A DNA stretch of 63,932 nt, counting the filler, from Chrysochromulina tobinii (Eukaryota), in assembly GCA_001275005.1 (NCBI GenBank). It is 8 parts of 8 records of this genome, joined end to end, with 100 filler letters (N's around TTAATTAATTAA, not from the genome) between each part and the next. Parts side by side here need not be neighbours in the genome. Positions count along the whole stretch, not along the records: positions 20,096 to 31,623 come from JWZX01000224.1; 7 more parts are not named here. One strand, written 5' to 3'. The position numbers were made by a program, and so were the translations under genes. Position 1 is the first letter of the stretch, and each line of letters begins with the position of its first letter. The notes under the pieces were generated by a model. It saw nothing but the letters and a program-made list of their open reading frames with translations. It did not search any database and was not told the DNA's origin. Below are positions 11,048 through 58,942 of this stretch, piece by piece.

Positions 11048-11147
11048 NNNNNNNNNNNNNNNNNNNNNNNNNNNNNNNNNNNNNNNNNNNNTTAATTAAT
11101 TAANNNNNNNNNNNNNNNNNNNNNNNNNNNNNNNNNNNNNNNNNNNN
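11048..11147. other. Artificial contig linker (N44-TTAATTAATTAA-N44)
   Basis: The same six-frame-stop linker occurs at 19996-20095, 31624-31723, 34199-34298, 41273-41372, 48444-48543 and 62124-62223. Confidence 0.97.
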
Positions 11148-20095: not shown

Positions 20096-20334
20096 AAGTC
20101 AAGGCGTCGGCCGCAGCGGCGGACGAGGTGCTCGAAATGCACGAGGATGAGAATGATGGCGACGATGACGATGACGAGGACGAGGACGAGGACGATGACG
20201 ATGACGAGGACGACGAGGACGACGAGGACGACGAGGATGACGAGGACGACGAGGACGACGAGGTCGAGGCGGCAGACAAGAACGACGAGGAGGAGGAGGA
20301 CTCCGATGATGTTGAAGACTCTGACGGAAACTAA
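20096..20334 (+). CDS. Acidic (Asp/Glu) C-terminal fragment of a gene cut by the gap
   Basis: Poly D/E run ending at TAA 20334. Confidence 0.45.
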
Positions 20335-20729
20335 CCGACACGGGTCCTGACAAGTCTCGGACGTAGTCGTTGGTCCAACCCAACGACGGATCCGATTGAA
20401 TCTCCCCATCGTGCGAGGTGTCTCACAGTCCACGCGACAGCACCCTCTTCCCTGCACCGCCAATCCGCCTCTTATGTCCGCCACCGGGGTCCGGGCTAGC
20501 GCGCTTGCTAGCGGAGGCAGCTATGGCCGTACCACGATTGGCCGTCGTTGGGTGTTGGCTGTGATCCTGTGAATGAACGAACGCGTACGCGATGTGAGTG
20601 CGGCGCATGTTGGCATGAAGATCAAGATGAACTCAGTCGAGTCCCATTCACAGCGTACAAGTTTCGTGTTCGCCCTAACAACTACAATAGTATTCGCCCG
20701 CACTCGCACCCGCGGCGCGCATCGGGGCG

Positions 20730-22646
20730 ATGTCGGAGCCGGTCAAGTGGCGCGGCCGGAGTGTCGCCGTGCCTCCCGGCGAGACCTTCGAATTCCTCAT
20801 TACCGCGCCTGAGGGCGGCTGCGACCTGCGCTACACGTACTCTGTCCACGATGACCTCGCGATAACCTTTTCCATCAAGCGTGCGGATGAGTGGTCGGTC
20901 GTGCTCGCGTCCGTGGAGGGCCCGAGCAAGTCAGGCGAGGTGGCCCTGCCGGGTGGCAGCGTGTGCGCCGTCCGCTGGGAGAATGCAACCCTTTTCGCCT
21001 TCAGCGGGATGATCAACACGCGCGTCGTGACGTATGAGGTGATCATGGTCCCTCATGCGCACACGGCGCTCGCGCGGCGCCGCCGGGTCGTGCAGCTGGC
21101 CCAGACCGGCAGCGCGACATCCGAACTGCTCGCCGCGCTCGACGGGCTCGCCGTCGACTGCGAAGAAGAGCTAGGCCGCACTCCGCTCCACGGCGCCGCG
21201 GCCGGAGGCAACGTGCCGGCGCTCACCGCGCTGATCCAGCGCAAGGCGCCACTCGAGGTACGCGCCGCCGACGGGCGCACGCCGTTGCTCGAGGCGTGCG
21301 CACACGCGCAGCCCGCTGCCGTGTCGACGTTGCTCGCGATTGGCGCCGACGTGCGCGCAGTCGACGCCGCCGGCCGCAATGCGATGCACCTGACGTGCTC
21401 GGAAGGCGTGCATGCCGCGCCGCCGTCTTCGCCATCCTCGCGCTCCTCGTCAGCGCTGTCGCCCCAGGCGTCGACGCTGCGGCTGCTTCTCGACGTCGGC
21501 GGCGCGGTGGCCAAGGCACTCGTCGCCCAGTACAGCACCGGTTCCGGGGCCGAGTCGGGTGATCTCGGTCGAGAGACTCCGCTCGTTTGCGCGGCGAGGT
21601 CGGGCCTCGCCGACTGCTGCGTGTTGCTGCTGGACTCGGGCGCAGACGCGAAGGAATGTGGCGGGCTGCCTCTGCTGCTGGCGGCGCGGCACGGCCGTCT
21701 CGAAGCCGTTCGCACGCTGCTCCGACGTGGTGCGGACTCGGCCACCGTATTCGGGAACCAGGGGACCGCGCTGCATGCGGCTGCGGTGGCTGGCCATGCC
21801 GCCGTTATCGAGGAGCTGGCCACCGACGCGCTCTCCAAGGGGCCCGAGGCGGCGAGCGCGGCGTTCCTGTGCACGGACGGCGAATGGCACGCGCCGCTCC
21901 TGCTCGCCGCCACGCATGGGCGCGGTGATGCCGTCGAGGCGCTCGTGGGAGCAGGCGCCCCGATTGAGCATCCAACCGACCGGCAGGGCAACACGCCGCT
22001 GCTCCGGGCTTGCGCCGCGGGCGACCCGAAGGCGGTCGGGGTGCTGCTGCTCAAGGGTGCGAATCCGCGCCACAAGAATGTCGCGGGGCAGGATGCTCTG
22101 TTCGTTGCGGCCGTGGGCGGCCATTTGCCGATCTTGCCCCTGCTGCTGCCTGCCTGTGGGAAAACCTTGCCCGATGCGATGGTGCAAGCGGCCGCGCACG
22201 GCCAGGCGCGCACCGCGGTGGCGCTCATGGAGCTCTGTCCTTTCCCTCTTCCGGCTCCATCTGAGTCTCGCACGTCGGCGCTCGCATCGGCGCGCCTGCT
22301 CCAGGCCCTTTGGCAACGCTGTTGCGAGGAGCACGTTGGCATTGACCCCACGTCCATCGCCCTCGAGGCCGCGGGCGGGTTCGGAGAGAAGGCGGTCGCG
22401 GCCGCGGCTGCTTCGCAGAGCGGCGGAGCGGCGAGCGCCGCTGTCGCGGCCGCAGGGGCCACGACGGCGGCCGCGGTTGCGGTGGGGGTTGCTGCCGAGG
22501 TGGCCGGGTCTACTCCTGCAGCTGAACGGGAAGGGGGCGAGGCCGACGACATCGACGACTTGACCAATATCCAGGAGCTCATTCGGCGAGAGCTTCTGGC
22601 TTCCGACGGCGACGACGACGCGGACGACGAGGATGACGAAGAGTGA
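20730..22646 (+). CDS. GOLD-like domain plus ankyrin-repeat protein
   Basis: N-terminal beta domain (VAVPPGETFEF...LRYTYSV...ITFSI...SGEV...VRWEN); repeated GRTPLH/GNTPLL ankyrin motifs; acidic tail. Confidence 0.8.
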   Translation: MSEPVKWRGRSVAVPPGETFEFLITAPEGGCDLRYTYSVHDDLAITFSIKRADEWSVVLASVEGPSKSGEVALPGGSVCAVRWENATLFAFSGMINTRVVTYEVIMVPHAHTALARRRRVVQLAQTGSATSELLAALDGLAVDCEEELGRTPLHGAAAGGNVPALTALIQRKAPLEVRAADGRTPLLEACAHAQPAAVSTLLAIGADVRAVDAAGRNAMHLTCSEGVHAAPPSSPSSRSSSALSPQASTLRLLLDVGGAVAKALVAQYSTGSGAESGDLGRETPLVCAARSGLADCCVLLLDSGADAKECGGLPLLLAARHGRLEAVRTLLRRGADSATVFGNQGTALHAAAVAGHAAVIEELATDALSKGPEAASAAFLCTDGEWHAPLLLAATHGRGDAVEALVGAGAPIEHPTDRQGNTPLLRACAAGDPKAVGVLLLKGANPRHKNVAGQDALFVAAVGGHLPILPLLLPACGKTLPDAMVQAAAHGQARTAVALMELCPFPLPAPSESRTSALASARLLQALWQRCCEEHVGIDPTSIALEAAGGFGEKAVAAAAASQSGGAASAAVAAAGATTAAAVAVGVAAEVAGSTPAAEREGGEADDIDDLTNIQELIRRELLASDGDDDADDEDDEE

Positions 22647-22897
22647 AGGGGGGGAGGCAAGGGATTCGCGAGTGCAAGTTCACCGACATGAAGCGCATGC
22701 GTACTGTACGCAGCAGTTACGCGGGCTTGCAGGCGGGCCCCCGTGCGGGGTATTCACGGGGTCTTGCGTGCGGGGTATTCACGGGGCCCCCGTGCGGGGT
22801 TGAGACGCGTGCGGATGATGCTCGTGCAATTAACTCAACCACTATCTTACCGACCACCTCAACACTATCTCAACTAACTCAACTTGAGAACACCATC

Positions 22898-23245
22898 TTA
22901 CCGACCACCTCGCTGCTGCCGCGCGAGGCTGCGGGACAGTACGCTCGCATGTGCCATTAGGTTGGCGGTATTTTTGAGGGAGGCTAGCGTACCGCCGGAC
23001 GTGGCCACCGCCATGTCCTCGAGAGCGTAGCCTGCATCGAGATCAGCACCGCGAAGCTGCTCGCTTGCGTGCCTCAGTGCAACTTTGTCGGCGACGAGTG
23101 CCGGGACAGAGCGTTGGATGTGCTCGACGACGTAGTAGAGGCCGACGGACGGCTCATGGGCCAAATTATGTATCAAACCTGTTGTGGAGGTCGCCAATCG
23201 CTCCGATGCCTGCCGGAGCTCACGGTTGTCATCGTCGGCAGGCAT
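22898..23245 (-). CDS. BORCS8: BLOC-1-related complex subunit 8
   Basis: LAHEPSVGLYYVVEHIQRSVPAL...DAGYAL matches the family signature. Confidence 0.85.
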   Translation of the reverse strand: MPADDDNRELRQASERLATSTTGLIHNLAHEPSVGLYYVVEHIQRSVPALVADKVALRHASEQLRGADLDAGYALEDMAVATSGGTLASLKNTANLMAHASVLSRSLARQQRGGR

Positions 23246-23480
23246 CGACGGAAATTTTTGTGCTGTCGATCATGAAGTCGAAGACTTCATGTTAATACAC
23301 ACAACACGTAAGCAGCACAGCCGTGAAGGCAAAACAAGAAGACTTCACGCAAAAAAGAAAATCCTCGGAAGACCTTTGTGGCACAGGGGGGGGGCAGAAT
23401 CCTCGAGCTCTTGGATATCGGTTGTGAGCGAGTTTCGTCAACACGTGAACGACCCTTCCCGGGCCGTCCAATCCAACTTG

Positions 23481-23996
23481 ATGCCCGATGCTCGAGATCC
23501 TCTTCAGGGAGGTCTCGCACGCGATCTGGCAAAGTTTCTGGTGAAAGTGCAGAAGGAACGTCGCTTGAGGCTGGTGCGCCGTACTGAGGACCGCTTGCGC
23601 AAGGCGATGCCCATCTCCACTACGCCGCCGTCTTCCCCAATGGGTGCCGCCGCCGTCGTCCCCAACAGCGCTGATGACCCCACTGCGCTCGAATGCGCGT
23701 ATTGCAGCCAGGAGAGCAACAGCTCCAGCGCCGCCGATGCTGCCCGCCCCTGCGACCGCGCTGAGAACAACAGCTCCATCGCCGCCGATGCTGCCCGCCC
23801 CTGCGACCGCGCTGAGAACCCCTACGCGCTCGAGTGCATCCTCTGCCTTGATGCTTACGAAACAGGCCAGCGCGTGCGGACGCTTCCATGTGACCACGTA
23901 TTCCACCAGCACGTATTGTTGGGGATTCACCCAACGACTGTGGTATCGTGCGTGTGGAGGGAGAGTTGTTGGGGATTCACCCAAGAGCGGTTCTGA
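23481..23996 (+). pseudogene. Truncated RING-H2 finger gene fragment
   Basis: ECILCLDAYETGQRVRTLPCDHVFHQH lacks the last three zinc ligands; local 51-bp and 19-bp duplications. Confidence 0.5.
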
Positions 23997-25011
23997 GGTC
24001 AGGTCGGACCGCTGAGGACATGAAGCTTTTTTTTGCCCAGGAGGTGTCCAGAGGGTGTTTCGAGACTCCCTGGAGTTAGTACGGGGCCCTCGGAGGCGCG
24101 GGGGGGTTAGGGGAGGGTAAAAACATAAATCGTGAAACGAAGGCCTTAGGAAATAGGGGATCGTGAATCGAAGGCGTTTCGTCACTAGAAACCCTATCCA
24201 TGGCGCACCCTGGCTTCATCGTGGTGAAGGCTGCCGCCCAGGCGAACGGCGCAAACTGTAGCCCTTGGCTCTGCGAATGCTGATGCTTAAAACGGTCCAG
24301 TGTGCGCCATAGGGTCCGGCGATGAGGGTGGCGTACAATGTATGAGCAAAACGTGTTGTAGCGGTCATATAAGTCATTCAAGCACACGTTCAATCACGCG
24401 CTACTGGAATCGAAGATAAGTGGCACCAAGGCACCATGTCTTTCGCGCAGTGGTGGGTGCTAGACCTGACCTCAGAAACGCTCTCCAGGCCCCAGGCGCC
24501 CGGGGGGCGCAAGGGCAGTGCACGGTGCCCTCTTGATGAACGTGAGGGAGTAGCAATCTGGTAAATAAGCATGGGAAGTACAGATTAAGTACCGCGGGAT
24601 CGTCAGACACCAGAGTCCCGCTCCCGCGGTGAAAGCGCGTCCATACTCCATTCTCGTCGCAATGGATACCCGTCCATTCTCGTCGCAAATGGAGAATACG
24701 CCGTCGCATTGCGATAGAGGCCCTCGTGCTTGGGGGTTCGGAGAGTGTGCGCGTTTGTGTGTTTCACAGCAACAGCTTTGGAATTGAGGAATTCCATTCT
24801 CAGAACGCGGCGCCGTCGCGTGTCGGTGTGCGTACGCACACATGTGGAGCACAGACCTCGAGGGGTGCGCGCTCCAAACTCTCCGGAACCGTCGCGAAGT
24901 GGTGGTTCGCCATCCGCGAGGCACGCTCACTCACCCACCCTCCTGCCCTGTGATCGCTGAACGCTGTGCAGGAACAGCGGATGGGGGCACCAGCAGCAGC
25001 AGCAGCCGCAG

Positions 25012-25800
25012 ATGTTACCAGGCGCACAGCTTCCCGGCATGCAGCTTAACGGCGCGCAGCTGCCTAGCGCTCAACTTCCCGACTTTGGCTTTGGCGGCGA
25101 CTCTACCGGCGGCCTGCTGCCGGCAATGCCCGGTGCGCTCGGGCTGCCATCGGCGCAAGACTTTGGCGGCTTTGAGCAGGAGCAGCACGGCGGCGGCATG
25201 GGTGGCGGCCGGCTCGAGCCGGTGCTCGAGAGCACCGAGCGCTCCGCCTTCTCGACCGTTGGCAATCTCGATGGGGAAGGTGAGGGCACACTGGGCGCCG
25301 TCTCGGGCTTCGGCTCCGTCAAAAAGGGTTTCTTCGACGCGTCTTCCCTCGGCGACGATGACGTGGAAGCGACCAGGCGGGAGCTCGCCAAGTGCCAGGC
25401 TGAGCTTGCGGCCTCGCGCGCGGAGCTGGCGGAAGAGAGGAGGAAGCACACGTACAACGTGCGCCGCATGCTCGACGCCAACGAGGCACTCCAGGCGCAA
25501 CTGCGAGAGCTCAACGGCGTCGTCCAGCGGATCGTCATGAAGACGTTGAACTTGCAGCGCACCGGCGCCGTCCCGAGCAGCGCCGTACCGGGCGGCATCA
25601 ACCCGCCCAAGGGGGGTGGCAGCAGCGGCCCCTTCCCGGCGATGGCCAAGCCGGGCGCGAAGCCTAAGCCGTCCCTGACGGCCCCCGCGAATGCAGCAGA
25701 CACTCTGGCGGACCACCATGCTCCCACAGCTCCCACAGCTCCACCTGGACCTGGGTCCAAGCCCAAGCAAGAGCCACCCGGCGCTAAGCCCTTCAAATGA
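25012..25800 (+). CDS. Hypothetical protein with central coiled coil
   Basis: 262-aa ORF with strong GC3 bias; may have an upstream exon. Confidence 0.6.
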   Translation: MLPGAQLPGMQLNGAQLPSAQLPDFGFGGDSTGGLLPAMPGALGLPSAQDFGGFEQEQHGGGMGGGRLEPVLESTERSAFSTVGNLDGEGEGTLGAVSGFGSVKKGFFDASSLGDDDVEATRRELAKCQAELAASRAELAEERRKHTYNVRRMLDANEALQAQLRELNGVVQRIVMKTLNLQRTGAVPSSAVPGGINPPKGGGSSGPFPAMAKPGAKPKPSLTAPANAADTLADHHAPTAPTAPPGPGSKPKQEPPGAKPFK

Positions 25801-26697
25801 TCTCTTCTCCAAACCGACACTCTCCGATCGGGATCGCCGCCCGCCGATTTGGTTTTTTTTCAGCGGGGGCTTTGACGGCGATGACGTCTGTGTATTGTAG
25901 ACGTTGTACAGAGCTTGCACAGCTTCATCTGTGGCGTCGGCCCTTCCGGCTCTGAAAAGTGAAAAAACATTGTTTAACGAAACTTCCGAGTTCAGCGTTC
26001 GGAAACAGCACATGCCACATGCCCCCCGTCGATAGTGTGCGGACGCCCGGGCGGGGGCGGGGGCGACCTCCGGCGTTACCGCGCGCCGGAGCCGAACCGC
26101 TTCGTGTCAACCGGCGGCGTCGACGGCGGCGGAGCGCCGAGCGACCCGGCCCGCGGCCGGGCGCGGGCGACGATACATCGGAGACGGGACGTGGCTGGTT
26201 CGGAGTCGGACATGCGATGCCGATGGTGCATGCATGGAACCATTACTGTGCGGTCACGGCGGTCTTCTCTGTGCATCACACTTAAAGGGATGTTAAATAC
26301 TTAAATTAGCAAACAACGGCGGTTCGGGTTCGCGCTTCGCGGCGCGCTCTGACTTCTAGGCGCGTTCAAACGATCACGTTCTCGCATCTCGGACGACGTC
26401 ACGAGACGTCGTGACGTCGAGATCAAGCGGTGGAGCGGAGAACTCGCATACCAGGCTCAAGCGGGACTTGGACTGCGAATCTATCTTTATCAGACACGCC
26501 GTGCGCGGCGCGTACGCAGCTCGCATGGCGCGAGCATCCTAGTGCTAGCGTCGACCGGGTCCCCACGGGTCACATGTGCTCATCATGTGCGGTGACGGGG
26601 CGCGCGGCCGAACTAACGATCCCCTGCGCGCTCGTTGCCGCGCGCTCTCGGCTCGCCCTCGCTTACGCCGTACCGAGCCTGCGCCACGGCTGGTGTC

Positions 26698-26960
26698 CCA
26701 CAGCTACGACTTCACAGCTCCGACTTCACAGCTCCGACTTCACAGCTCCGACTGCACGTCCCCTTACATGCATCTTGCCTCATCTTCTCATCTTCAAGAG
26801 CCACATCGGCATCATCCAGATCATCCATCCCATTCACCTCGATAGTTCATGAGCCCCAAGCCTTGACCTCGCCCGCTATCCGGCTTCACACGCGCGCAGG
26901 CTTCACACCCGGCTTCACACCCGGCTTCACACCCGGCTTCACACCCGGCTTCACACGCGC
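26698..26960. repeat. CTTCACA-core minisatellites
   Basis: (ACTTCACAGCTCCG)x3 near 26709 and (GGCTTCACACCC)x5 near 26899. Confidence 0.8.
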
Positions 26961-27242
26961 AGCTCGCGGGCCGATCTTCATCCTCAGAAGCGGAAGAGCC
27001 GCCCGCCGTGCGCCGTGTGCCCTATCGTGTGCCCGATTGGCGCGTTCACACCCAAAGTCCCCTCAGCACTGCCCGGCGTCGTCCCGGGCGACGGTTGGCG
27101 CACCCCCTTCTTTCGGACCACGGTGCCGCCAACGGCCCTCAGCTCGCGGTGCATCGTCGGAGTTGCGATGCCTGACGGTAGGGTGGACGGTAGGGTGGAC
27201 GTGAGAGTTGAGCGCCCCGACCAGTCGTCCTGCATGCAAGGG

Positions 27243-30200
27243 CTACCAGGGAGATTCTGCGAGCTGCCGGGGAGATTCTGCGAGCTCCAGGGCGCCACGT
27301 CCGTGAAGCTCCTGCGCCGGCTCGGCGTCTGCGTCGGAGTGCTTGATGACGGGGACGTCCCGGCGCCCCCTCCTTCCCCCCCGGTGCCGCACAGGGCCGT
27401 CCTCGTCTGACGAATCCGGTTTGGGCAGTGACGAATCTGTCGGTCCCGTGGGCTTTTTCCGCCTTCCCCCGAGCAACCCCCCCAGCCGCCGTCGAGGCTC
27501 CGCTGCGGCCGTATGGTGGTTCGTATGGTGGCTCGCGTAACTGTTCGGTGAGGCAGCGGCACTCGCGGCGGCGCTCCCCATCGGGTTCCCAATCGGGTCG
27601 TTCTCCTTATCGCGCTCCCCACTCGCCCCGCGCCGGCCGGCGCCGCTGCCTTCACGCTTCGATGGCTTGCCTGTCTTCACAGGCGCCGGCGCGAGCTGCG
27701 CAGGCGCATTCGCGTTGGATACGCCGTTGGCGATCTGGACGGGCGCGGCCGAGGGCTTGGGTGCGAGCGTCTTGTTGAGCGGCGCCACCTCCACGCTCGC
27801 CTTCTGAGGGAGGAGCTCGTCGGGGAATTCGTCAATGACGAGGGGTCCATCCCAAGATCTCCCAATCGATCTCCCCATCGGGAGCGACCCCATCGGGCGA
27901 GGCCTCGCCGCCTCCGCCCGTGCGTCTCTCTTGGCTGCCTTCAGCTGCCCGACCGCATCATGCACCGCCGGGGCAAGCGGCGGGGGGCAGCGGCGGGGGG
28001 CGGCGCCGGGGGGCGAGAGAGCGCTCAGCTCCAGATTCGTGGTGACCGACGAGGTGCCATCTCCGCGAATCTCGATCTGGAGCCTCGGAGATGGCAGGAC
28101 CCGAATCTCAACCCGCGGCGTGGTCACGATCTGCATCGTCGGCGCTCGAGCGAGCGAGTCAGCACGCGCCTCGGAGGCCGCCGCCCGCGCCGCCGCCGCT
28201 GCGTCTCGCGCGCGCCGCGCGCTGAGCGAGCCATCTCTATCCCCATCCCCATCCACGGAGGTCGCGGCGGCGGCGGCGGCCGAGGCGGCGGCGGCGGCCG
28301 CGGCGTTGGGGAGGCTCGTGAAGATGGGTGCTGTGAAGGTGGGTGCTGTGAAGGTGGGTGCGGCAGCAGTTTCTGCTTCGACCACTGGCGCCTTCACCGG
28401 CGCCATCGAGGGCGCCGTCGCGGGCGCCGTCGCCGTCGCGGGCGCCGTCGCCGTCGCGGGCGCCGTCGCCGTCGCGGGCGCCGCTGGGGACTGTTTGAGC
28501 GGCGGCGGGGCGGACGGTTTGGCGCGCGGCTCAAAGGTCTTCATGAGGGCCTCGCGCGCCCGCGCCGAGTTGAGCGCCTCGTGCACCACCGCTGGGGAGG
28601 CTGCCCGTGCCGCGGCAGCCACCGCCACGGGCGGCGGCGGGAGCGGCGGCATGTCGACCGGTAACACGGCCTTGTTGCTCGGCGGCTGCGGCGCCAGTGA
28701 GGCCGTAGCAGGCAGCGACGGCGGCGCGAGCTGCAGGCTCTTTTGCAGATGGGCCCTGGCGCGCGCGCTGTCGGTCGGCTCATTGACGACCGCGGGTGAG
28801 CCTGCCTGGGAGACCGCCTGCACGGTGGATGGCGAGTGGTGAGTGACGAGGCAATCAGGACGCAATCAGGACGCGATCAGGACGCGATCAAGAGGCCATC
28901 AAGAGGCCATCAAGAGGCGATCAAGAGGCGATCAAGAGGCCATCAAGACGCAATCAGGATGCAATCAGGAGGCCATCAAGAGGCCATCAAGAGGCCAAGA
29001 ACGGCACTCGCCTGAACGGTCGAAGTCGCTCGCTCCGACCAGACACCGTCCCGTTCGGTCCAGCCCGACGCCTCCGAGCTCTGGACCGATGGCGGCGCGT
29101 ACCTGTGGGGAAAGGGGAGGACGCGCGCGCCGTGGTGAGCACTTGCATGCGCCCCCCCCAAAGCTCGAGCGCTCTGGACCGATGGCGGCGCATACCTCGA
29201 GGTGCGCTTGGTCGCAGCTGCCGCCACGGCCGCCGCGAGGGCCGCCATACCTACCCCTAGGGCGGTGGGACCATCCTTGACAGGCGCGGGAGTCACGCAC
29301 GCAGTGCCCTTCGCGGGCGCCGTGTCGGGCGCGCTGCTCTTCAGCGGGAGGGGTGGCACAGCCGGGTGGCGAGCTTGTGGAGGCGGCGCCCTCGTCGGCA
29401 ACGGCGGCGGCAAGGCGACGATAGGTGGCGGCACCGGAGGTGGTGGCACAGCTGCCACAGACACGGCGCTGGCTGCCACGGCAGCAGGCGCGCCTGCGCC
29501 CGCCGCCCTCGCCTCCGCCGCCCTTGCCTCCGCCGCCCTTGCCTCAGCCGCCCTTGCCTCCGCCGCCCTTGCCCGAACCTCAGCGGCTGCCGCACGCTGC
29601 TCGGCGGCGGCGCGGGCGGTCTCAGAGCCAGCACGTTCACGCCTCGCCACCTCCGCCTCCGCCATCGCCGTGTGCGCCCGCGCCTGCGCCGCCGCTGCGG
29701 CCTCGTGGCCACGCGCCTCGGCCGCCCGCGCCGCCGCCTCTGCCGCCTTCGCCGCCGCCTCTGCTACCATGGCCGCCGCCTCGGCCGCCCGCGCCGCCGC
29801 CTCGGCGAGCTTCGCCTGCTCCTCGAGAACCGAACGCGCTGTGGTGAGCACTTGCATGCAAGGCAGGTCATCAGTGGCAATCAACGTGCCTGCTCCTCGA
29901 GTGCGGAACGCGCTGTGGTGAGCACTTGCATATGCAAGGCAGGTCATCAGTGGCAATCAACGTGCCTGCTCCTCGCGCTCCACAGCACGGCTGACCGCGG
30001 CCTGTGCCTGCTGCTCGGCCGCTTGCGCCGCCTCTGCGCGCTCCGCCGCCGCGCGACTCGCCGCGAGCGCCTCGGCGAGCTCCTGCTTCGTCTTCGTCAG
30101 CTCGGCGGTCGCCGTGAGGTTCGTCAGCTCGGCGGTCGCCGTAAGGTTCGCCACGGCCGCCTTCTCCTTCTTCTCCTTCCGCCGCTGCTGCTGCTCGAGC

Positions 30201-31174
30201 TGCTGCGCGGCCGCACGCTCCGACTTGGTGGCAGACAGCTCCTGCGCAGTCGATTGAAGCTGCATCGATGCCTGCGACAGCTGGTCCGCTTGGCGGCGGA
30301 TAGTCGCGGTCAGCTCCATCTCCCTCTTCCTGAGCCGTTCCACTTCGCGCCGCTCCGCTTGCGCCTCCGATCGGTGCTCTTGAACGAGCCGATGGAGTGC
30401 CTCCGCCTGCGCGGCCGCCTCGGACGCCTCCCGCCTCGCCGCGTCCGCTTCTCGCCGCGCCGCTGCCGCCTGCTCGGCCGCCTGGCCCACCGGCGCATCA
30501 GCCTCGATGCGCGCGGCGGCCGCCTCACGCAGCTCGCGCAGTTGGGCTTGAAGCAACTCGGCCTCGCGCCGCGCCTCCTCGGCCTCGCGCCGCGCTGCGA
30601 GGACTTGGTCATCCGACGCCACCGCTGCGCCATGAGCGCGCGCCATCTCCGAGGTGATGGCCGCCGACGCCTTCGCCGCTGCCTCGGCCGTCGCGGCGCC
30701 AACGTCGCCGCCCTCACCCGCGCGCGCGGCCGCAAACTCATACGATGCCATCTTCAGAGAGTCGCGCAGCGCAGGCACCTCGCCAGCGAGCAGCGCGCGC
30801 ACGCCGAGCTGCACGATGTCCGCCTCGCGCTCGACGGTGCGCCGCAGCTGGCCCTCGAGCAGCGCAAGCTCCCCTCGGAACACAGACATTGCGACCATCA
30901 CCTCGGCGCGCTCGGCAATGCGGCGCGCGCTGTTGTGCCTCTCCTTGGGCTGCGACATCGTGATGTTCAGCTGCATCGGCGCCGCCGCGGGTGCGTTGGG
31001 CGTCGCCGCCCCGGGAGGCGGCGCGACGGCCAACGCGGCAACCGATCGGCGCGCCTCGTAAAGCTGCACATTCGAGAGCTGGAGCGCCTGGCGCGTCTCC
31101 GCGTGCGCGGCGCGCTCGGCGCGCAGAAGCCGATCCACACATCCCAGCTCGAACTGCGCCGCCTGCGAGTACAT
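27243..31174 (-). CDS. Large multi-exon Ala/Glu coiled-coil and Pro-rich protein
   Basis: Exons 31174-29966, 29815-29196, 29102-29012 and 28817-~27243 join in frame through introns 29965-29816 (GC-AG), 29195-29103 (GT-AG) and 29011-28818 (GC-AG). A further 3' exon near 27170-26984 is possible. Confidence 0.7.
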
Positions 31175-31869
31175 AATGGCCCACGAGCGGCTCTCGAATG
31201 ACCTTCGAAAAAGGGCGGGGTGTGAAGATGGGTATGAAGTGAGAATAAAATAAATGAGGAGCTACTTGTGCTTAAATAATTGATGAACTTCGTGCAAAAC
31301 GTCGGTGCAAGACGCGACTTGCGGTTCGTCAGTTCCGTTGCGAAGGGGCGCGGTACTGTACCGAGCTGTACAACGACGGCCAGTTGTTTTTTTAGTGCCC
31401 GCCGCCCGCCCGACTTCGCAAATCGCCAGCTTGGCCAGCTTGCCAAGTCGCCTACGGAGGAAAGCACCTCTTCCTCGAGCGTGTGCGCTATCACCTCTTT
31501 CAGCATCTCGGGCCGCCTGTCGAATGCAGTCAATGGATGCAGCTGAGGGTGGTGCTCATGGCGATGCTGCTTCGACGATCGCTGCCTTCGAAAAGGAAGA
31601 ACTCGCGCGCGAGCAGCTGCAGANNNNNNNNNNNNNNNNNNNNNNNNNNNNNNNNNNNNNNNNNNNNTTAATTAATTAANNNNNNNNNNNNNNNNNNNNN
31701 NNNNNNNNNNNNNNNNNNNNNNNCACGTACTGTACGAACGCTTTCGTCGAGCATTTATCTTGGATCGAAAAAATGGACAGGGAATGGACAAATTCACAGT
31801 CACTCCCTTTATCGCGCAGAGCACATGATTTTTCGACCGAGGAGAGCCGCCGCTGCCCCCGCCGGGATA

Positions 31870-48838: not shown

Positions 48839-51800
48839 ATGCCGACAGTCCTTCTTGCTGCCCTCGCCGCCGCGCTCGCGGACGCGCCGCCGCGCATCTT
48901 CGACCACATTTCGGTCACGGCGAGCGCCTCGTGGGCCAACGATCCCATCATCGAAGCGGCATCACTTCTCTACGGCGAGCTCGGCGGCCGAGGCGTGGCG
49001 TGGTTCCTCAAGGGCGTCGCAGGCCAACCCGGTTGTGAGGACGTGCGCTGCGCCGCCAGGGCGATCAGTTCGCTGAGCTTGCCGCCGCTTCAGGTCCGTG
49101 CGCTCGGCGCCGCTCTGGCCGCGCGGGTGGAGGCGCCCAAGGTGGAGGCCTGGGCGCAGCTCGCGGCCGCCGTGCCGGGCTCCTCACCCGACCGTGGAGC
49201 GCTCGCGCACGCGGCCGTGTGGCTCTGCACGTGCGACGGGCGCATCCACGTGGAGGTGGAGGATGCGCTGGCGGCGCTGGCAGTGCTCGTTGACTCACCC
49301 GAGGAGTGCCGCGAGGCGAGCGCCAGCGCCGTGCCCGCGGCGCTCGACCACGCGTTCGACAACGACAACGCGGGCGGACGCAGGAGCGCGGACGCCATTT
49401 CCACAGCTCCGTTACTGATCGCGTACGTCGACCCGCACGCCGGGGCTGCGATGGGCGCGGCAATGGCGGCGCTACTCGCCGTGCCACCCGCCACCGCGCG
49501 CATCGTGCTGCGCTACCGTCCCTCGGCCGCCGTTAGCCCGGTGCCTCTTCAGGGCTTTGGGACGGTCGTGCGGCTGAAGGCGTCCGAGTACAAGGTGGTG
49601 GACGACCGCGGCGTGGAGGCGGCGGCCGATGCGGCCGACGAGAGCGACGACGATGCCGTCGAGGGCGAACCGGCCGGAGGAGACGAGGCGCCTTCGTTTC
49701 TGCTGCGCAAGCGAGCGGGTGAGCCGCTCGTCGCGTGCATGCTGATTGCCTCCCTCATTGCGAGCGGGTGAGCCGCTCGTAGTTGCGACGGCGGTCACGC
49801 GAGTGCATGCTGATTGCCTCCCTCATTGCACGCAGGTGAGCCGCTCGTTGGCGACGGCGGCGACGGCTCGAGCCTCTCCGCCGCACGGCTTGGCGCTCTG
49901 AGCATGCAGGCGGCGGTGGCGGTGCTGCGCGCGCGCCGGCCGTTACCGACGCTCCGGGACGTGAGCGGGTTGCTCCCAAGCCTCGCACGAGCGCTCTCGC
50001 GCATTAATTTGAGCTCACCTGCCCACGAACCCCTCGTACGCTCGCTCGTGACGAACCCCTCGTGACGAACCCCTCGTGACGAACCCCTCGTGACGAACCC
50101 CTCGTGACGAACCCCTCGTGACGAACCCCTCGTGACACACTCCGAGCAATGCTGCTACCAGCATGCTAACTGCCGCTGATGGCCTGCCTGATTACCTCCC
50201 TCATCAGGTACGCTCGCTCATCGCGATCCGGCCGCTTTTGCAATCAGCATGCAACTCACTGCTGCTCAACGGCTTACCAATCGACCTCACCCGTGCGGAC
50301 TTGGCCCCTCTGATTACCTCTGATTACCTCTGATTACCTCTGATCACCTCTGATTACCTCTGATTACCTCATGCGTGTGGCCTTGGCGCCTCGAGCGCGC
50401 CTCCCATCCCACCACCCGCGATTGCATGCTGAGCGCACCTCCCATCCCTCCCTCATTGCATGCAGGTGCGGACTTGGTGCAGCACACGATGAAGCTCGTG
50501 CTCACCGAGGCGAACACAGCGGCCCAGCTCGTGCAGCTCGGCTTGCGCCCAACTGTCGTGAGCGCGCTGCTCACGACGGCGCCCCCGCCCCCGGTGCGCA
50601 TCGACGCCCGCAGCCTCGAGAGCGCCACGCTCTGGCTGAGTGACCTGAGCGCGCCTAATTTGGATGGGGGCTTCAAAACATGGCCCTCGGATCTAAGCTC
50701 GGCGCTTAAAAAGGGCCTTCGGGGCGCGCGCCAGTTCACAAGGCATAACCTGTTCACAGCCATCTTCGCCTTCGACCCGGCGACGATGCACGGCGCGCGC
50801 ACGGCCGGCTACGTGGCGACCATCCTGAAGCGGAGCGCGCCTCTTCGGATTGGGGTGCTTGCTCGCTCGGCGGACGGTAACGGAGATTCCAATCTGGCCA
50901 CGCGCGCTCTCGCGGGCACTTGCATGCTGATGGCCCCTGATTGCCCCCCTCCCACCCTCCCTAACTAGGTAGCGGAGATTCCAATCTGGCCACGCGCGCT
51001 CTCGTGCACTTGCATGCGGTGGGGGGCAAGGCGGCACTGATCGCTTTCCTGCGCACCCTCGGCGCACGGGCGGGGGCGGCAGTTGGAGCGCCGCGGCGGG
51101 CACCCGAGCTGGCGGCAGCACCGGTGGACGCAGCCGAGGAGGGGGACGCGGCGGGGGCGGACGAAAGTGATGCGCTGGCTGCAGCAAACACGGACGGCGA
51201 CGCGCAGGCGGAGGCGGGGAGCGCTCAGGACGACGCGACGACGGTGGCCGAGGGCGATGCGCGTCGTACTGAGCGTGCCTCCGCTGTTCTTGAGCCGACG
51301 GTCCCACGGCAGGTGCTCGTGATTGCATGCTGATTGCCTCCCTCATTACCAGCTCTTGAGCCGACGGTCCCACGGCAGGTGCTCGTGATTGCATGCTGAT
51401 TGCCTCCTTCATTACCAGCTCTTGAGCCGACGGTCCCACGGCAGGTGCTCGTGGACGCTGTGGCGGCGGCGCTCGAGGTCATCGCGGGGGGCGCCAAGGG
51501 GGGAGGAGGAGGCAAGAAGGGCAAGAAGCGCAAGGCCAAGTCGGCGGCGGCAGAGGAGGAGGCGACGGCGTCGGCAGGCTCGGAGGCGGCGAATGCCACG
51601 GACGGTAGCCGCCCGGCACGGCGCGCGGAGGAGGTCCTCCTGCAGCTCGGCATGATCGGCGAAGGCATAGGGCTCGAGGCCGCCGAGCGTGTGGAAGCCA
51701 TGGACTTGGCCGCCAACCTGCTCGGGCTACCTGCCTCCCTACCCGTCGCCCTTCTCAACGGACTGGTGCTGATCCCCGAGGCGCCCATTACGGCGCTCTC

Positions 51801-54800
51801 AGGCGAGGCGCTCTGGGGGGAGATGATTGCACTTGCAATCACGAGAGAAGCTCAGGTGATTGCATCCCTCATCAGGCGGCGATCGTGCAGTACGATTGGC
51901 CGTCTGATTGCGTCTGATTGCGTCTGATTGCGTCTGATTGCGCTCACGAGAGAAGCTCAGTTTGTCCGTGCGCTCATCGAGGAGGGCGCCCTGATGATTG
52001 CCTGTGATGGCCTCTGAGGACCTCTAATCGCCACTGTCATCAGGTTGTCCGTGCGCTCATCGAGGAAGGTGCCCTGAGCGATGGCGCCAACCTTACCGGC
52101 ACCGAGGCGACGGCGAGATCGGGCGAGATGCATAGTGCGAGATCGGGCGAGCTCCATAGTGCGCTGCTCGAGGTGCTCATGTCAAGGGGGAAGGTGGCGC
52201 CCTTTTATTCTGCACAGCTCGCAGTAGCTGCCAAGGAGGAGACTGTGCGCGATGCCATCCGTGCGGCGGGGGCGGCGGCGGGTGGAGAGGCGGATGGGCA
52301 GGCAGCGCCGTATTGGGCGGATGGGCAGGCAGCGGCGAGCGGCAAGGCGTCTGCGGCAGCAGAGGCGACCCAGTTGGCGGGAGTGGTACGCATGCACGGG
52401 GAGCGATTGGATTGGCGAGCGCTTGCATGCTGATGGCTTCTTAATGGCTTCTGATTGCCCTCCTCCTACCCTCCCTAATTAGGTACGGGTCCTCGAGGAG
52501 CGCGTATGGAATCCCGAGTCGCCTTCGAATGTGCATGCCGACTCGCGCCGACTGCATGCACGCCGGCTGGTGCTCAACCCTAATTTGGAACGCTGTGCTC
52601 GAGAGGGGAGCTGCCTCGAGATTGCGGGGATAGGGGATGGCGCCGCGCTGCACTTGGTTGCGATCGTCGATCCTCTCACGGTGCAAGCGCACAAGATAGC
52701 TGCCCTGCGGATCGCATGCTGATTACCTCCCTCATTACCTCGGCAGGTGCACGCGCACAAGATAGCTGCCCTGCTGATCGCTCTGCGGGAGGAGATGCAT
52801 GCACGCGTGACGCTCCTCCTCGCACCGAAATCTCCGCCGAGCTCCGACGATCTCGCCGAAGGCGCCGTGATGGGCAGCCTTTGGTCCCCCGAGCCATCCG
52901 CTGCCTCGATGCCCCTCGATGCCTTCCACAGGTGATTGCTCTGGATTGCTCTGGATTGCTCTGGATGGCTCTTGATTGCGCATGATTGCGCATGATTGCT
53001 CTTGATGGACCCTTGATGGCTTTTGATGGGATGGGCACGTCTCTCTCTATCTCTCTCTCCGCGTTCCACAGCTTCGCCGTGCAGCTCGATCCGCTCAAGA
53101 CGGCGCCTCCCGCGGCCACCTTTGAGATGTTTCGGCCGAGGGCGCCGCAGACGCTCACGCTCACGCCCGAGGCGCCACCAGGTGATTGCATCTGATTGCG
53201 TCTGATTGCGTCCCTCATCAGACGCTCACGCTCCGCCCGAGGCGCCACCAGGTTGGGTGATGACGATCTCCGCCGCGAGCTCCGACCTCGACAATCTGCG
53301 GCTGCACACGCTACAGTCCAGCCAGTCCGTGCATGCAGCCTACTCGCTCAGCGCCTTGCTTGTCACCGGAAAGTGTGTGGATCGCTCGGGGGGTGGTGTC
53401 GGCGGTGCCAAGGGCGGCGGCGGCGGCGGCGGCGGCGGCGGCAAGAAGGCAGCTCATGGCAAGAAGGGTAAGCAGCAGCGGCGGTGGCGAGGGAGCACTG
53501 ATGACCTCTCTAATTACCTCTGATGGCCTCTCTAATTACCTCTGATGGCCTCTCTAATTACCTCTAATGGCCTCTCTAATTACCTCTGATGGCCTCTCTA
53601 ATTACCTCTGATGGCCTCTGCACGACTCTGAGGGTGGCCAACACTGATTGCCCCTTTCATCAGGCAAGCGGCGGCGCGAGATGACCGAAGCGGATGCGGA
53701 TGGGCACGCCGCCTCCGCCGGAGGGAATGCATGCACAGCGGCGGCCCTCGAGCTGCATCGGGCGCTCGGTACGGCGCTCACTACGGCGCGAGCTCCGACG
53801 GCCGAGATGGGCGCGAGCCGCGATCTCGTCAATCTCGTCAATCTCGTCCACGCGCCCGCTTCGGATACCCTCGTCATCGGCTCCGAGTATGCGCTGCACC
53901 CCGACTGCACCCCGATCGACCTCTGGCATGTCTCGGCGCATGCACGTGCTCACCACGGCGCCCTGCCCCCCCCCTCCCCACAGGTACTTTCAATTGCAGG
54001 CGCCGGGGCCTGGGCTGTGGTCAATCTCGCTCGCCTCCGGCGCCGAGCTCCTGAGCGCCCGCCACGGCGCCGCTACAGGCGCCCGCTACGGCGCCGCCGT
54101 CCCGGGCAGCCGTTACGCCGCGCCTCCGGCCCGCGCCCTCCCCGTGCCGCTCCTCTCGTATACCGGTGCGACGCTCGACATTCTCGTCGGCGCAGACCCA
54201 AATCATGGCTTGAGCACACGCACCACCGCCGCCCCGGCTCTCGCCGCCGCCCCCGCCTCCGCCGCCGCCGGTACGGCGCTCGACGAAACAGTCCACATCT
54301 TCTCCCTCGCATCGGGGCTGCTCTATGAGCGCTTCCTACGCATCATGATGAAGACGGCCGTTGAGCGCGCGAGCCGCCCACTGAAGTTTTGGATCCTTGG
54401 CAACTTCCTCTCGCCCGCCTTCCGTCACGCTGTGAACAGCGGCGCGCTCGCAACGGCCGTTGGCGCTCAGGTGATTGCATCCCTCATCAGGTGGCGATCG
54501 TGCTCTACGATTGGCCGCCTGAGTGCGTCTGAGTGCGCCCGAGTGCGTCTGATTGTGGATGATTGCGTCCCTCATCAGGTGGCGATCGTGCAGTACGATT
54601 GGCCGTCTCACCTGCGAGAGCAGACGGAGAAGCAGCGGCTCATCTGGGGGTACAAGATCCTGTTTCTCGACGTGCTCTTCCCACAGGTGAAAGGCGATGA
54701 TTGCGATGGAGTCCGACGAATCTCCGATGAATCTCCGATGGATCTCCGACGAATCTCCGATGGGCTGTCTCGTCCTCACCTTGCCTTCATCGCAGTCGCT

Positions 54801-56125
54801 CCGCAAGATCATCTTCGTCGAGGAGCTGATTGCCTCTTGATTACCTCTGATGAGCCCTAATTGCCTCCGTCGCAGTCGCTCCGCAAGATCATCTACGTCG
54901 ACGCGGATCAAATCGTCCAGGGCGACCTCGCAGAACTTTGGGATAGGTGATTGCCACGGAAGGACACTAATGGGCACCCTGATTGCCACCCTGATTGCCG
55001 CCCTGATTGCCATCCTGATTGCCATCCTGATCGTCCAACGGGACCTCGCCCCTGATTGCCACCCTGATGACCTCCGATGCTCCCCAATGTGGCACTTCAC
55101 ACCCAACCGAACTTCACACCCAACCGAACTTCACACCCAACCGAACTTCACACCTTTGCGGCAGGCCTCTCCTCGGCGCTCCGGTGGCCATGACGCCCTT
55201 TTGCCGCGCCGACCCAAATATGGCAACCAAGGGCTTCCGCTTTTGGGAGACCGGCTTCTGGGCAGGCGCGCTCGGCGGCAAACCATACCACATCTCCGCG
55301 CTCTTCGTCGCGGATCTGGCCGCCTTCCGATCGATTCGGGCAGCAGGGGGGGCGAGCGCGCCGTCGTGGGCAAGCGAGCAGGGCGTGGGTGACATTTACC
55401 GGTCGACGTATCAGTCGCTCACAGCTGACCCGAGCTCGCTTGCCAACCTCGACCAGGACTTACCCAACTACCTGCAGGGCATGGTGATTGCGTCTGATTG
55501 CGTCTGATTGCGTCCCTCATCAGGACGTACCCAACTACCTGCAGGGCATGGTGATTGCGTCTGACTGCGTCTGATTGCGTCCCTCATCAGGTGCCCATCC
55601 ACTCCTTGCCCGAGGAGTGGCTCTGGTGTGAGTCCTGGTGCGGCAACGCCTCGCAGTCCGCTGCGAAGACGATCGACCTGTGTAACAACCCGATGACCAA
55701 GGAGCCCAAGCTTGAGCAGGCGAGGCACTCTTCATTACCCTTGATTACCCTTGATTGCTCTTAATTAACCCGATGACCAAGGAGCCCAAGCTCGAGCAGG
55801 CGAGGCACTCTTGATTACCCTTGATTACCATTGATTGCTCTTAATTAACCCGATGACCAAGGAGCCCAAGCTTGAGCAGGCGAGGCACTCTTGATTGCTG
55901 TGGATTGCTGTGGATTGCTGTGGATTGCTCTTGATTGTACTTGATTGCGCTTGATTGCTCGGGCAGGCGAGGCGCATCGGAGGGGAGCGCTGGGCCAAGA
56001 TCGACGCCGAGCTCGAAGCCGCCCTCGGGGGGGGAGCCTCCGCCGCGGTAGGTTCTGAAGGTGGCGCTCACGGCGGCGCGAATATGTCACCATCGGCAGC
56101 ACTCATGGAGAAGACGGAGCTCTGA
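48839..56125 (+). CDS. UGGT: UDP-glucose:glycoprotein glucosyltransferase, 18 exons, ~1625 aa
   Basis: Signal peptide; [103 protein letters not shown]-terminal KTEL. Introns 49719-49835, 50036-50207, 50293-50465, 50877-50968, 51313-51444, 51856-52043, 52386-52482, 52681-52746, 52932-53071, 53182-53251, 53468-53663, 53887-53983, 54471-54578, 54687-54875, 54947-55164, 55484-55590 and 55720-55966 (GC-AG) give one continuous frame. Confidence 0.95.
55484..55590 (+). mobile_element. Two copies of the 40-nt intron module GTGATTGCGT(CTGATTGCGT)2CCCTCATCAG around a duplicated exon end
   Basis: Copies at 55484-55523 and 55551-55590, near-identical copy at 53182-53221, and a 20-nt form at 51856-51875 and 54471-54490. 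Mobility is inferred. Confidence 0.55.
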
Positions 56126-56332: not shown

Positions 56333-57610
56333 ATGGCTTCCCAGAGCCCACAAGACCCATGCATGGACGAAGATACCATGGCAAGGCAGTTCCCGCGCCT
56401 GCAAGGCGCCGGCATGAGCGGCCCACTAGGAGCAGGCGGCTACGCTAGCGGCGAACACATCGGCTCATCGAATGCCCGGGCGCGTGCCGCCGCGAGCATG
56501 AACACGGTCTGCACAGCCACGGAAGTGGAAGCAGTTCTCGACATCGACGCAGTTGAAGTGGAAGCAGTTGATGACATGGACGACTCCATCGAGGTTGAAG
56601 TTGTACTCGTTGACGAGTCCCGGATGGACACAGGCTCCTCGTCGACGCCACGAGTTTCGACAGATGACGTGCAGCACCTCAGGGCGATCAAGGCAAGGGC
56701 TGCCGCGGCAGCGGAGGGGCTGGAGCTGGTGCCGTCGTCGAAGAACCAGACGGGCTTCAAGGGCGTGACCTTGACTCGTGGCAGGTACTATGTGGACGTC
56801 TGTGAGAACGGCATGACGCGCCACCTCGGGGGCTTTGCAACGCGAGAGGAGGCAGCCTTGTGCTATGCAAGGCACATTGGGGCGGAGCGAGCGGCGGCAG
56901 AGGCGGCGAAAGAGAGAGGCGAGGGGCTGAATACGACAAAGCCGCTCACAGCAGATGAGGCCAGGGCTGCCGCGGCAGCGGAGGGGCTGGAGCTGGTGCC
57001 GTCGTCGAAGAACCAGACGGGCTTCAAGGGCGTGACCTTGACTCAGGGCAGGTACAACGTGGACGTCTATGAGAACGGCAAGCAATCACGCAACTTTGGC
57101 GGCTTTGCAACGCCAGAGGAGGCAGCCTTGTGCTATGCAAGGCACCTTGGGGCGGAGCGAGCGGCGGCAGAGGCGGCGAAAGAGAGAGGCGAGGGGCTGA
57201 ATACGACAAAGCCGCTCACAGCAGATGAGGCCAGGGCCGCCGCGGCAGCGGAGGGGCTGGAGCTGGTGCCGTCGTCGAAGAACCAGACGGGCTTCAAGGG
57301 CGTGAACTTGATTGGTGGCAAGTATTACCTGCAAGTCTATAAGAACGGCAAGCAATCACGCAACTTTGGGGGCTTCGCAACGCCAGAGGAGGCAGCCTTG
57401 TGCTATGCAAGGCACCTTGCGACGGAGCGAGCGGCGGCAGAGGCGACGGGTGAGGGGCCACAGCCGCTCACGGTGGATGAGGCGAAAGAGATTGATGGGA
57501 GGCACACCTCAGGACGCGGCTCTCTACAACCCGTTGAACATCCCGCGCCGCCTGGTCCGAGTTGTGAACGTGAACATCCCGCGCCGCCTGGTCCGAGCAG
57601 TTCCGAATAG
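56333..57610 (+). CDS. Protein with three tandem AP2/ERF-like DNA-binding domains
   Basis: TGFKGV...GRY.V....G....LGGFAT.EEAALCYAR three times, ~270-bp near-identical repeats. Confidence 0.8.
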   Translation: MASQSPQDPCMDEDTMARQFPRLQGAGMSGPLGAGGYASGEHIGSSNARARAAASMNTVCTATEVEAVLDIDAVEVEAVDDMDDSIEVEVVLVDESRMDTGSSSTPRVSTDDVQHLRAIKARAAAAAEGLELVPSSKNQTGFKGVTLTRGRYYVDVCENGMTRHLGGFATREEAALCYARHIGAERAAAEAAKERGEGLNTTKPLTADEARAAAAAEGLELVPSSKNQTGFKGVTLTQGRYNVDVYENGKQSRNFGGFATPEEAALCYARHLGAERAAAEAAKERGEGLNTTKPLTADEARAAAAAEGLELVPSSKNQTGFKGVNLIGGKYYLQVYKNGKQSRNFGGFATPEEAALCYARHLATERAAAEATGEGPQPLTVDEAKEIDGRHTSGRGSLQPVEHPAPPGPSCEREHPAPPGPSSSE

Positions 57611-57748
57611 CGCCCGTTTGACGAATAGCGCCCGTTGGACGAATTGCGCCCGTTGGACGAATAGCGCCCGTTAGACGAATTGCGCCCGTTGGACGAATAG
57701 CGCCCGTTTGACGAATTGCGCCCGTTGGACGAATAGCGCCCGTTGGAC
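57605..57748. repeat. 18-bp tandem repeat GAATWGCGCCCGTTDGAC x8
   Basis: Read directly; the first unit contains the stop codon of the AP2 gene. Confidence 0.9.
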
Positions 57749-58709
57749 GCACTCCGCAGCTGCAGCCCACTGTTCACGGCTAACCCTAGCCCACTGTTCA
57801 CGGCCAACCCTAGCCCACTGTTCACGGCCATGCACGACGAGCAGCGCAAGCAGCAAGGATCGTCTTCATTCTTGGCGCCGTCGCCTGCGCTGCCACCATC
57901 CACCGTCATTTGGCGCACATCGAACAAGCGGCCGGTTGCAGAGGCCTTTGGAGATCTCGGCCTTTTGGAGATCTCGGCCTCTGGAGATCGGGGCTGGCCA
58001 CAAACGATGGGTCTCTCTCTGCAAGGCAATGAGCGCAAGCAGCAACATCCAACGCGGCAGCAGCTGCTCTCAGTCCGGCAGGAGGAGCAGGTGCTCATGC
58101 AGCTACAGCCCATGGCACCTGATGAGCAGTGCCCTCTACATATGCTGTGGGAATAGTAGCCCAATAGTAATAAATAGTAATGCCCCAAATGCGGCGGCAA
58201 GCGAGGACAACCCCCGACACCGGCTCAGCAACCGCGATCGGAGCCCGTTGCGGCGCCTCCCTTGCCCTTGTTTTTCAACTACACCGCTATTCCGTTTTCC
58301 GATTCTTTTGCACTGGTCTGTGTCGGGACGGCAGGGGCTAGCGACGAGCGTGCTGGTCTGAACGGAACGAGGCGGGGGGTCGAACCCGAGGGGGGGACAC
58401 ACAGTGACACAGAAGAGTTTCGAATTGGTATTGGAGACGTCTGGAATGGCCGCATTACTGAATGGCCGATGCAACTTCCCCCGGTTGCCGCCGTGCAAGC
58501 GTGCACCGTCCGGAGCGATAAATATACTTTATAGCGTGACCTACGCACAAAGGCGTATACGTTACATGAGGAAAAGAAATAGGATACGGTATCAGAGTGT
58601 AATAAAGATACATCAACTCATCAAGCAGTTGTGCATCAATTTGGTATTTGCAGAGATACGGCGCGCAGATTCTGTCCGGTCGGCGGCGGATTACTCGAGG
58701 ACATGCCAC

Positions 58710-58942
58710 TTGACCCAAGGGGGAGTGGTCTACTATATTTTTCATGTTTATAAGGCCCCACCCCTACACCTGTTTGGGAATTGAATGGTTGACCCAAGGG
58801 GGAGTGGTCTACTATTTTTCATGTTTATAAGGCCCCACCCCTACACCTGTTTGGGAATTTGAATGGTTGACCCAAGGGGGAGTGGTCTACTATTTTTCAT
58901 GTTTATGAGAAGGCCCTAACCCCACACCTGTTTGGGAATTGA
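58710..58942. repeat. ~78-bp tandem repeat x3
   Basis: TTGACCCAAGGGGGAGTGGTCTACTAT...CACCTGTTTGGGAATT at 58710, 58789 and 58867. Confidence 0.9.

Follow-up and report, generated by a model that had tools for sequence, protein, structure and literature searches.

Short introns in the alga Chrysochromulina tobinii appear to combine duplicated exon sequence with splice-signal pieces shared with other, often nearby, introns

The origin of most new introns is unknown, and intron gain by break repair is so far represented by a handful of examples in which the repeats are short and the inserts cannot be traced. In Oikopleura, same-gene sister introns are reportedly homologous to existing ones. The neointrons of Daphnia pulex have been attributed to the repair of staggered double-strand breaks, with repeats of 4–12 bp (Li et al. 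2014, PMC4202315). Published introners carry family-specific duplications of 3–9 bp (PMC9860276; bioRxiv 10.1101/2020.10.14.339549); those of the marine Chrysochromulina sp. TARA MAG family 5 show 4-bp duplications and no inverted repeats (PMC9860276). Breaks with 3' overhangs give small tandem duplications in mammalian cells (PMC8355091).

Many short introns in the alga studied here, Chrysochromulina tobinii, appear from their sequence to consist of two parts: (i) a duplicated 11–44-base piece of the gene, and (ii) a splice-signal piece shared with other, often close, introns. Like the Daphnia neointrons, they show a direct repeat of the adjacent exon at the other end, polymorphic presence, and secondary internal repeats; they differ in that the repeats are longer (11–44 nt, as opposed to 4–12 bp) and that the insert, for which the source is mostly unknown in Daphnia, is traceable to a splice-signal-bearing piece of an intron (PMC4202315). 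With the introners of Chrysochromulina sp. [quoted passage not shown] As in the Rogers model of tandem genomic duplication, the duplicated exon supplies splice sites and the message is unchanged, but here foreign intron sequence lies between the copies, usually supplying one splice site and the branch region (PMC3443670). Intron transposition by reverse splicing (PMC3443670) and the sister stwintrons of fungi (PMC8469720) likewise involve new introns that are homologous to existing ones; those are seamless, whole and duplication-free, whereas ours are mostly half-introns with long duplications, some of them antisense. Finally, the duplications of PMC8355091 provide a tested route from staggered break to tandem duplication, albeit in mammalian cells and without intron creation.

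With highly similar introns at non-homologous positions, and presence/absence at one orthologous site, the family counts as introners in the broad definition. Neither the 3–9 bp target-site duplication (among repeats scoring ≥12) nor the inverted repeats (in six whole units) and fixed ends of DNA-transposon (MITE-type) introners were found, and the long duplications, half-introns and antisense copies depart from reverse splicing of the fungal ILE type. What is seen is that the insert is followed, at its far end, by a direct repeat of the exon next to it, as predicted by staggered-break repair. The closest known route is gain by break repair, with the addition of a filler that is another intron. 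Local sources of the inserts can be traced; the copying of part of an existing intron into a break has long been proposed, and the source has rarely been seen. Our literature search, conducted for the most part outside subscription papers, returned no description of this intron family or of local half-intron copying, and a term search of the available text of PMC12130899 gave no mention of haptophytes or microhomology. In the available supplement of PMC9860276, two freshwater Chrysochromulina genomes are among the genomes screened, and are absent from the family tables among the rows listed.

The window (i.e., the whole stretch of DNA analysed, 63,932 nt) contains seven linkers (44 N + TTAATTAATTAA + 44 N) joining contigs between positions 11048 and 62223, so gene neighbourhoods that span linkers are unreliable. 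Three introns lie in the piece at 20096–31623, within a host gene on the minus strand (26984..31174) that has four exons (31174-29966, 29815-29196, 29102-29012 and 28817-26984). The gene encodes a low-complexity, coiled-coil-like protein of no known family: a Pfam search gave no match, and the only homologues found, P0001 and P0002, show N-terminal similarity and are too distant for placing introns. Removal of the three introns leaves a frame that is open over 1164 aa in the window, and over 1250 aa in an independent assembly (L072). L072 and the window agree base for base across all three introns, and DNA run X1 contains error-free pieces covering 28919–29842; an assembly artefact as the source of the introns is thereby ruled out. 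The runs containing window DNA are mixed-culture and freshwater runs and, together with the closest named relative of the UGGT protein (below), point to a likely freshwater haptophyte. Five single-base indels relative to L072 and X1, located in homopolymer-like runs at 27365–28013, are likely sequencing errors and account for an early stop at ~27245 in the window copy; a fourth intron near 27250, an idea that arose from this stop, was accordingly rejected. Lying 3' of the gene is a 12-nt tandem repeat (26899–26956) with three fewer units in X13 and X17, two RNA runs that derive from a slightly diverged strain.

All three introns had been placed in this gene by a first-pass annotation, and each of them was borne out at its coordinates, as were their main internal features. 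Introns 2 and 3 are spliceosomal (U2-type) introns, removed at GT/GC..AG ends. Intron 2 (29103..29195, minus strand; 93 nt, GT-AG) takes its donor from duplicated exon and its 3' signals from a shared module. As annotated, the 25 nt with which it opens (29171..29195) duplicate the beginning of exon 3 (original 29102-29078); this copy supplies the GT donor, is identical at 24 of 25 positions, and extends to 27 nt if the preceding AG is counted; retention of the intron leaves the host-gene frame open. Intron 2 also contains a shared 19-nt core, GCATGCAAGTGCTCACCAC (29132..29150, minus strand), that includes a branch-site-like CTCAC, the putative branch site. Intron 3 (28818..29011, minus strand; 194 nt, GC-AG) has a junction repeat of 13 nt in which a single position is mismatched (its ends match at 8/9 plus 3/3). 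The arrays noticed here on first pass form an 11-nt, TGATGGCCTC/TGATTGCGTC-type array of 13.6 copies (28848..28997, minus strand; TRF), and motifs of this class are also clustered in introns of the UGGT gene described below.

RNA joints were found for the 194-nt intron 3 in two runs (X13 and X16) and for the 93-nt intron 2 in one (X13), with none over the 150-nt intron 1 among the contigs listed from six RNA runs of low cover, which is evidence neither way. The 194-nt joint can slide by 6 nt, and its sole canonical placement is GC..AG. A single 337-nt polyA contig from X13 skips both introns; in-frame retention of the 93-nt segment as coding sequence, which the frame permits, was rejected because the contig skips that segment. 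The X17 contig breaks at the position of intron 2, and an X14 contig is unspliced across 29135–29289, possibly reflecting retention, pre-mRNA or DNA in the library.

Intron 1 (29816..29965, minus strand; 150 nt, GC-AG) is a tandem pair of a 74-nt whole-intron unit, in line with the doubled module originally reported: a more diverged first unit of 76 nt (29890..29965; alignment score 69 against the second) is followed by a second of 74 nt (29816..29889). The 12-mer that had been counted three times is indeed present at both ends and in the middle (TRF period 76). Retention of intron 1 would produce an in-frame stop at codon 405, three codons in, and excision of just the 76-nt or just the 74-nt unit would put the sequence out of frame; removal of the whole is needed for the host-gene reading frame, and intron 1 is presumed to be spliced. 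The middle junction (29890/29889, minus strand) reads CAG|GC, both acceptor and donor, and two-step removal with a zero-length exon is therefore possible.

The second unit of intron 1 belongs to a subfamily with GC donors that occurs at GAGGAGCAG^GC sites. It is 72/74 and 73/74 identical to introns in loci L046 and L062, the flanks of which are unrelated to the window flanks (local scores 11–13), and locus L111 holds a related copy. All of these copies (window, L046, L062 and L111) lie at sites ending in GAGCAG or GAGGAGCAG before GC. The recurring unit itself includes the GC start and the GAGGAGCAG tail; part of the triple 12-mer therefore moves with the unit, and matches the target. Because all subfamily targets also continue with GC, the exon and element origins of the intron 1 GC are inseparable. 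Of the two GC donors said to have been taken from exon CAG|GC, that of intron 3 plausibly was; that of intron 1, in a subfamily with GC throughout, was not simply so derived. A different 74-nt unit is found at CATTCCACAG sites in loci L008 and L102, and is identical in the two at 74/74 positions. One 74-nt unit contains both a TGATTGCC-type and a GTGCTCACCAC-type motif; what was first described as a separate second motif family is not one, and the two are parts of a single mosaic pool.

A search with the exact 19-nt core returned at least 135 stretches, at no fewer than 126 loci, in metagenome contigs; the recurring motif is a real repeated family. Its recurrences in the window start at 29150, 29859 and 53937 (the last in the UGGT gene), as initially noted, and the one recorded at ~29910 is actually a variant at ~29933. 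Summed contig depth at the motif is 33,000, versus ~90, a figure that indicates many copies and is not a copy number; across 231 kb away from the seeds, core clusters number roughly 56 per Mb and TGATTG-type clusters roughly 117 per Mb. After 14 loci repeating another locus were dropped, 145 units remained among the matches listed, 135 with full flanks. The pattern is general in this lineage: a direct repeat scoring ≥12 brackets 91 of these 135 units (again among the matches listed), compared with 2/594 mismatched pairs and 42/500 random same-locus sites, and the remaining 44 lack a repeat scoring 12.

Two forms of intron can be called from the repeats and GT/GC..AG alone; repeats scoring <12 were left unclassified, and the duplication lengths given here cover scores ≥12 only. 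In form A (53/91), the insert brings the 3' splice signals and the donor comes from a copy of the next exon. These introns start with an 11–44-nt next-exon copy (median 28, n=53) and end with the shared branch-like core, a pyrimidine tract and a CCCCACAG-type acceptor. In form B (15/91 by script), the insert brings the 5' signals and the acceptor comes from a copy of the end of the previous exon; of the 15 inserts, 10 open precisely with the 5' end that the introns share, GTACGTTGATTG or a near variant of it. Neither form fits the other 23 repeat-flanked units. Form A duplications are perfect in 20 of 53 cases (mismatch rate 4%), and 51 of the 53 introns measure 67–94 nt. The left end of the form A insert varies, lying 0–33 nt from the core, and duplication length is anticorrelated with insert length (rho −0.69, n=51), a relationship to which the 110-nt search window itself contributes. 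No terminal inverted repeat was found in six whole units checked, and inspection of insert ends by eye revealed neither a poly(A) nor a tandem tail.

Enrichment of GC donors among duplication-bearing introns, which the first-pass annotation had raised, was not seen. GC donors are present in 3/53 form A and 4/15 form B introns (together 7/68 duplication-bearing introns with the motif, an informal count) and in 1/17 UGGT introns, so the two GC donors among three introns in the host gene are not the rule. The view that modules follow transcript orientation holds for the most part: of 164 pairs of adjacent modules within 600 nt of each other, 152 share a strand. Antisense copies do occur. Among six opposite-pair loci inspected, where neighbouring introns and open frames served to assign the gene strand, L114, L095 and L062 contain antisense copies that lie within or beside a gene and have a duplication of their own, and the same is probably true of L067 and L094. 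In L114 (positions 1–90), in a gene that we take to be DnaJ-like, the antisense module sits between two CAG|GTGAG repeat copies, such that the duplication would supply the two splice sites. Loci L005, L010, L095, L107 and L112 contain module insertions or arrays with units divisible by three (39–57 nt) and without clear splice sites, possibly kept as coding sequence.

The UGGT gene (48839..56105, plus strand), for which intron boundaries were set by hand from protein homology, provides an independent set and supports the presence of the same architecture in an unrelated gene. Its open frame of 1621 aa aligns end to end with P0003 and P0004, includes a GT24 domain, and has a Prymnesium parvum protein as its best named relative, ranking after three unnamed proteins. 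Copies of flanking exon were found in 12 of its 17 modelled introns (16 GT, 1 GC donor), as opposed to 4/272 in the control; the GC donor is in an intron with such a copy (1/12, versus 0/5 of those without). Intron 12 (53887..53983, plus strand) carries the core motif (53937-53956) without the long duplication. Stacked modules are seen in UGGT introns at 54687-54875, 55484-55590 and 55720-55966, where alternative acceptors are possible; intron 14 has a duplicated acceptor plus exon start, and introns 16 and 17 contain tandem arrays, with 67- and 80-nt units containing exon copies.

In three cases (L116, L066 and UGGT intron 6), the putatively copied piece matches an intron 0.5–2.6 kb away, the distance being 2.5–2.6 kb in the latter two. 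L116 represents the only empty site found: it carries 81 nt that are absent from L012 and L053, with flanks about 97% identical. The insertion divides into a 34-nt duplication free of mismatches and a 47-nt stretch; the latter matches, in L012, the 3' half of an intron lying ~480 nt downstream. Among 164 other modules, this L012 intron alone is identical to it over the 44 nt scored (next 0.95). In L116 itself, no second exact core match lies within 600 nt among the matches listed, a weak hint as to whether its strain retains the neighbouring source intron. The empty/filled site is not any of the window's three introns, and we infer its direction of change; precise loss between the 34-nt repeats could also yield the empty site of L012/L053. 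In L066, the insert of the intron at 12538 opens with 6 nt of the exon-derived duplicate from the intron at 10004, joined through a shared 5-nt match, and the junction occurs only at 12538 and 10004. The 5' part of UGGT intron 6 (51856..52043, plus strand) copies intron 13 (54471..54578, plus strand), its likely source, including a captured piece of exon 14. The local match to the start of intron 13 spans 91 nt with 7 mismatches, and is followed by a 17-nt copy of the end of intron 6's own upstream exon. The captured piece occurs only at 51878, 54493 and 54581 across all data searched, and intron 6 also shows a 6-nt match to the upstream exon of the source intron.

A local tendency is visible more widely. 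Same-strand modules 150–3000 nt apart are more alike than other-locus modules in 17 of 24 loci (Wilcoxon p=0.0016; L057, a homologue of L077, was also dropped from this test), while distant or opposite-strand pairs within a locus are at background (0.393, n=29, vs 0.379). There is no local excess of module similarity in the other 7 of 24 loci, and the closest near pairs (similarity ≥0.8, 6/91) come from L058 and L066 alone. Near-identical units in unrelated loci (L008/L102; window/L046/L062) indicate that copying is not only local. The match at exit junctions is weak, with a shared exon prefix of 2.9 vs 2.4 nt from non-independent pairs, and L008/L102 share 1 nt. L030 and L069 differ by the doubling of an existing intron.

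Starting from the observed duplications, shared modules, one empty/filled strain pair and the splicing of two introns, we propose recent intron gain, in which a broken or stalled DNA end copies 40–78 bases of an existing, often nearby, intron; we put the probability of this reading at roughly 0.58. At a staggered break or a stalled fork, the 3' end would prime on another intron via a few matching bases. Copying of the branch-site and acceptor half would give form A, and copying of the donor and branch-site half form B. The copied end would then anneal back slightly upstream in its own gene, duplicating 11–44 exon bases; the missing splice site would be provided by the duplicated exon, and splicing would thus restore the message exactly. 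Where the target already resembled a form-B intron tail, a whole 74-nt intron could be copied, as may have happened in intron 1. Flanking repeats would permit tandem doubling (window intron 1; L030 vs L069) and probably precise loss, and slippage would enlarge 10–11-nt arrays such as that of intron 3. Candidate pathways are end joining of the polymerase-theta type and template switching during replication; templated insertion, a step that we assume in this scheme, is a feature of polymerase-theta end joining. The sense bias and the 67-nt minimum length are likely due to selection: lengths of 67–94 nt, with long duplications accompanying short inserts, fit selection for a minimum spliceable length.

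Much the same scars are predicted by RNA-templated insertion, in which the reverse transcriptase of a retroelement would start from a nick and copy pre-mRNA or excised intron RNA, often of the same gene, leaving a truncated cDNA and a long, variable target duplication. Form A, with its acceptor-fixed 3' end, variable 5' end and variable duplication lengths, accords with this, variable 5' ends and variable duplications being the known pattern of non-LTR insertions. The local bias fits a transcript held at its own gene, and ten form-B inserts begin exactly at the shared intron 5' end. Selection too, however, would force fixed splice-site ends, and the long variable duplication with 5' truncation seen in form A, a trait of target-primed reverse transcription, is not mechanism-specific. 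The poly(A) or tandem tail is not seen at insert ends by eye, and the antisense copies and the 6-nt upstream-exon match of UGGT intron 6 oppose the excised lariat as sole template, though not pre-mRNA. We regard an RNA template as less likely than DNA-templated repair, but still plausible.

Considerably less probable is that the introns are old, with exon copies and motifs added later by slippage and intron-to-intron gene conversion, and with the 19-nt core being a long branch-site consensus. Later internal duplications in UGGT introns 14, 16 and 17, the 5/17 UGGT introns without a flank copy, and the doubling that separates L030 from L069 are compatible with such a history; set against it are the empty site in L012/L053, the identical 74-nt introns in unrelated genes, and the form A introns, in which the whole 5' part including the donor is an exon copy (20/53 perfect, 4% mismatch). 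We give the least credence of all to a classical introner, i.e., a cut-and-paste DNA transposon of the non-autonomous kind that brings one splice site with it and acquires the other from its target-site duplication. The logic of splice-site recruitment is that of described introners, and whole 74-nt units do recur in unrelated genes, but the described duplications are family-specific and 3–9 bp long, while those seen here are continuous over 11–44 nt. Variable left ends already largely contradict this explanation, and the inserts carry locus-specific source sequence, with a local copying bias. It is these varying ends and duplication lengths, with no inverted repeats seen in the six units checked, that make a cut-and-paste introner unlikely.

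Returning to templated DNA repair, we tentatively suggest that introns may spread without a transposon, with host repair copying half-introns, preferably those of neighbours, along genes like contagion, and with the long duplication supplying both the other splice site and the minimum length. Spread of this kind, if true, would explain the 17 look-alike introns of UGGT while neighbouring genes appear intronless. Source, target, duplication and empty allele are readable together in this family, across numerous copies from wild as well as cultured strains; DNA-templated repair versus RNA-templated insertion is therefore directly testable. Since between a third and a half of every intron is a locus-specific exon copy, we suggest that such families may escape introner screens that demand similarity over the full length, and that the junction repeats are a stumbling block for gene predictors and short-read assemblers.

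Elsewhere in the window, positions 56691–59543 contain 270-nt tandem coding repeats, presumably AP2-like, followed by 18-, 24- and 78-nt arrays, with no Pfam match. On the plus strand at ~24903–24972 lies a probable short intron, with a CTCACTCACC motif resembling that at 28843 in intron 3; the summed DNA contig depth of this bin is very high, and the sequence is therefore another repeated module.
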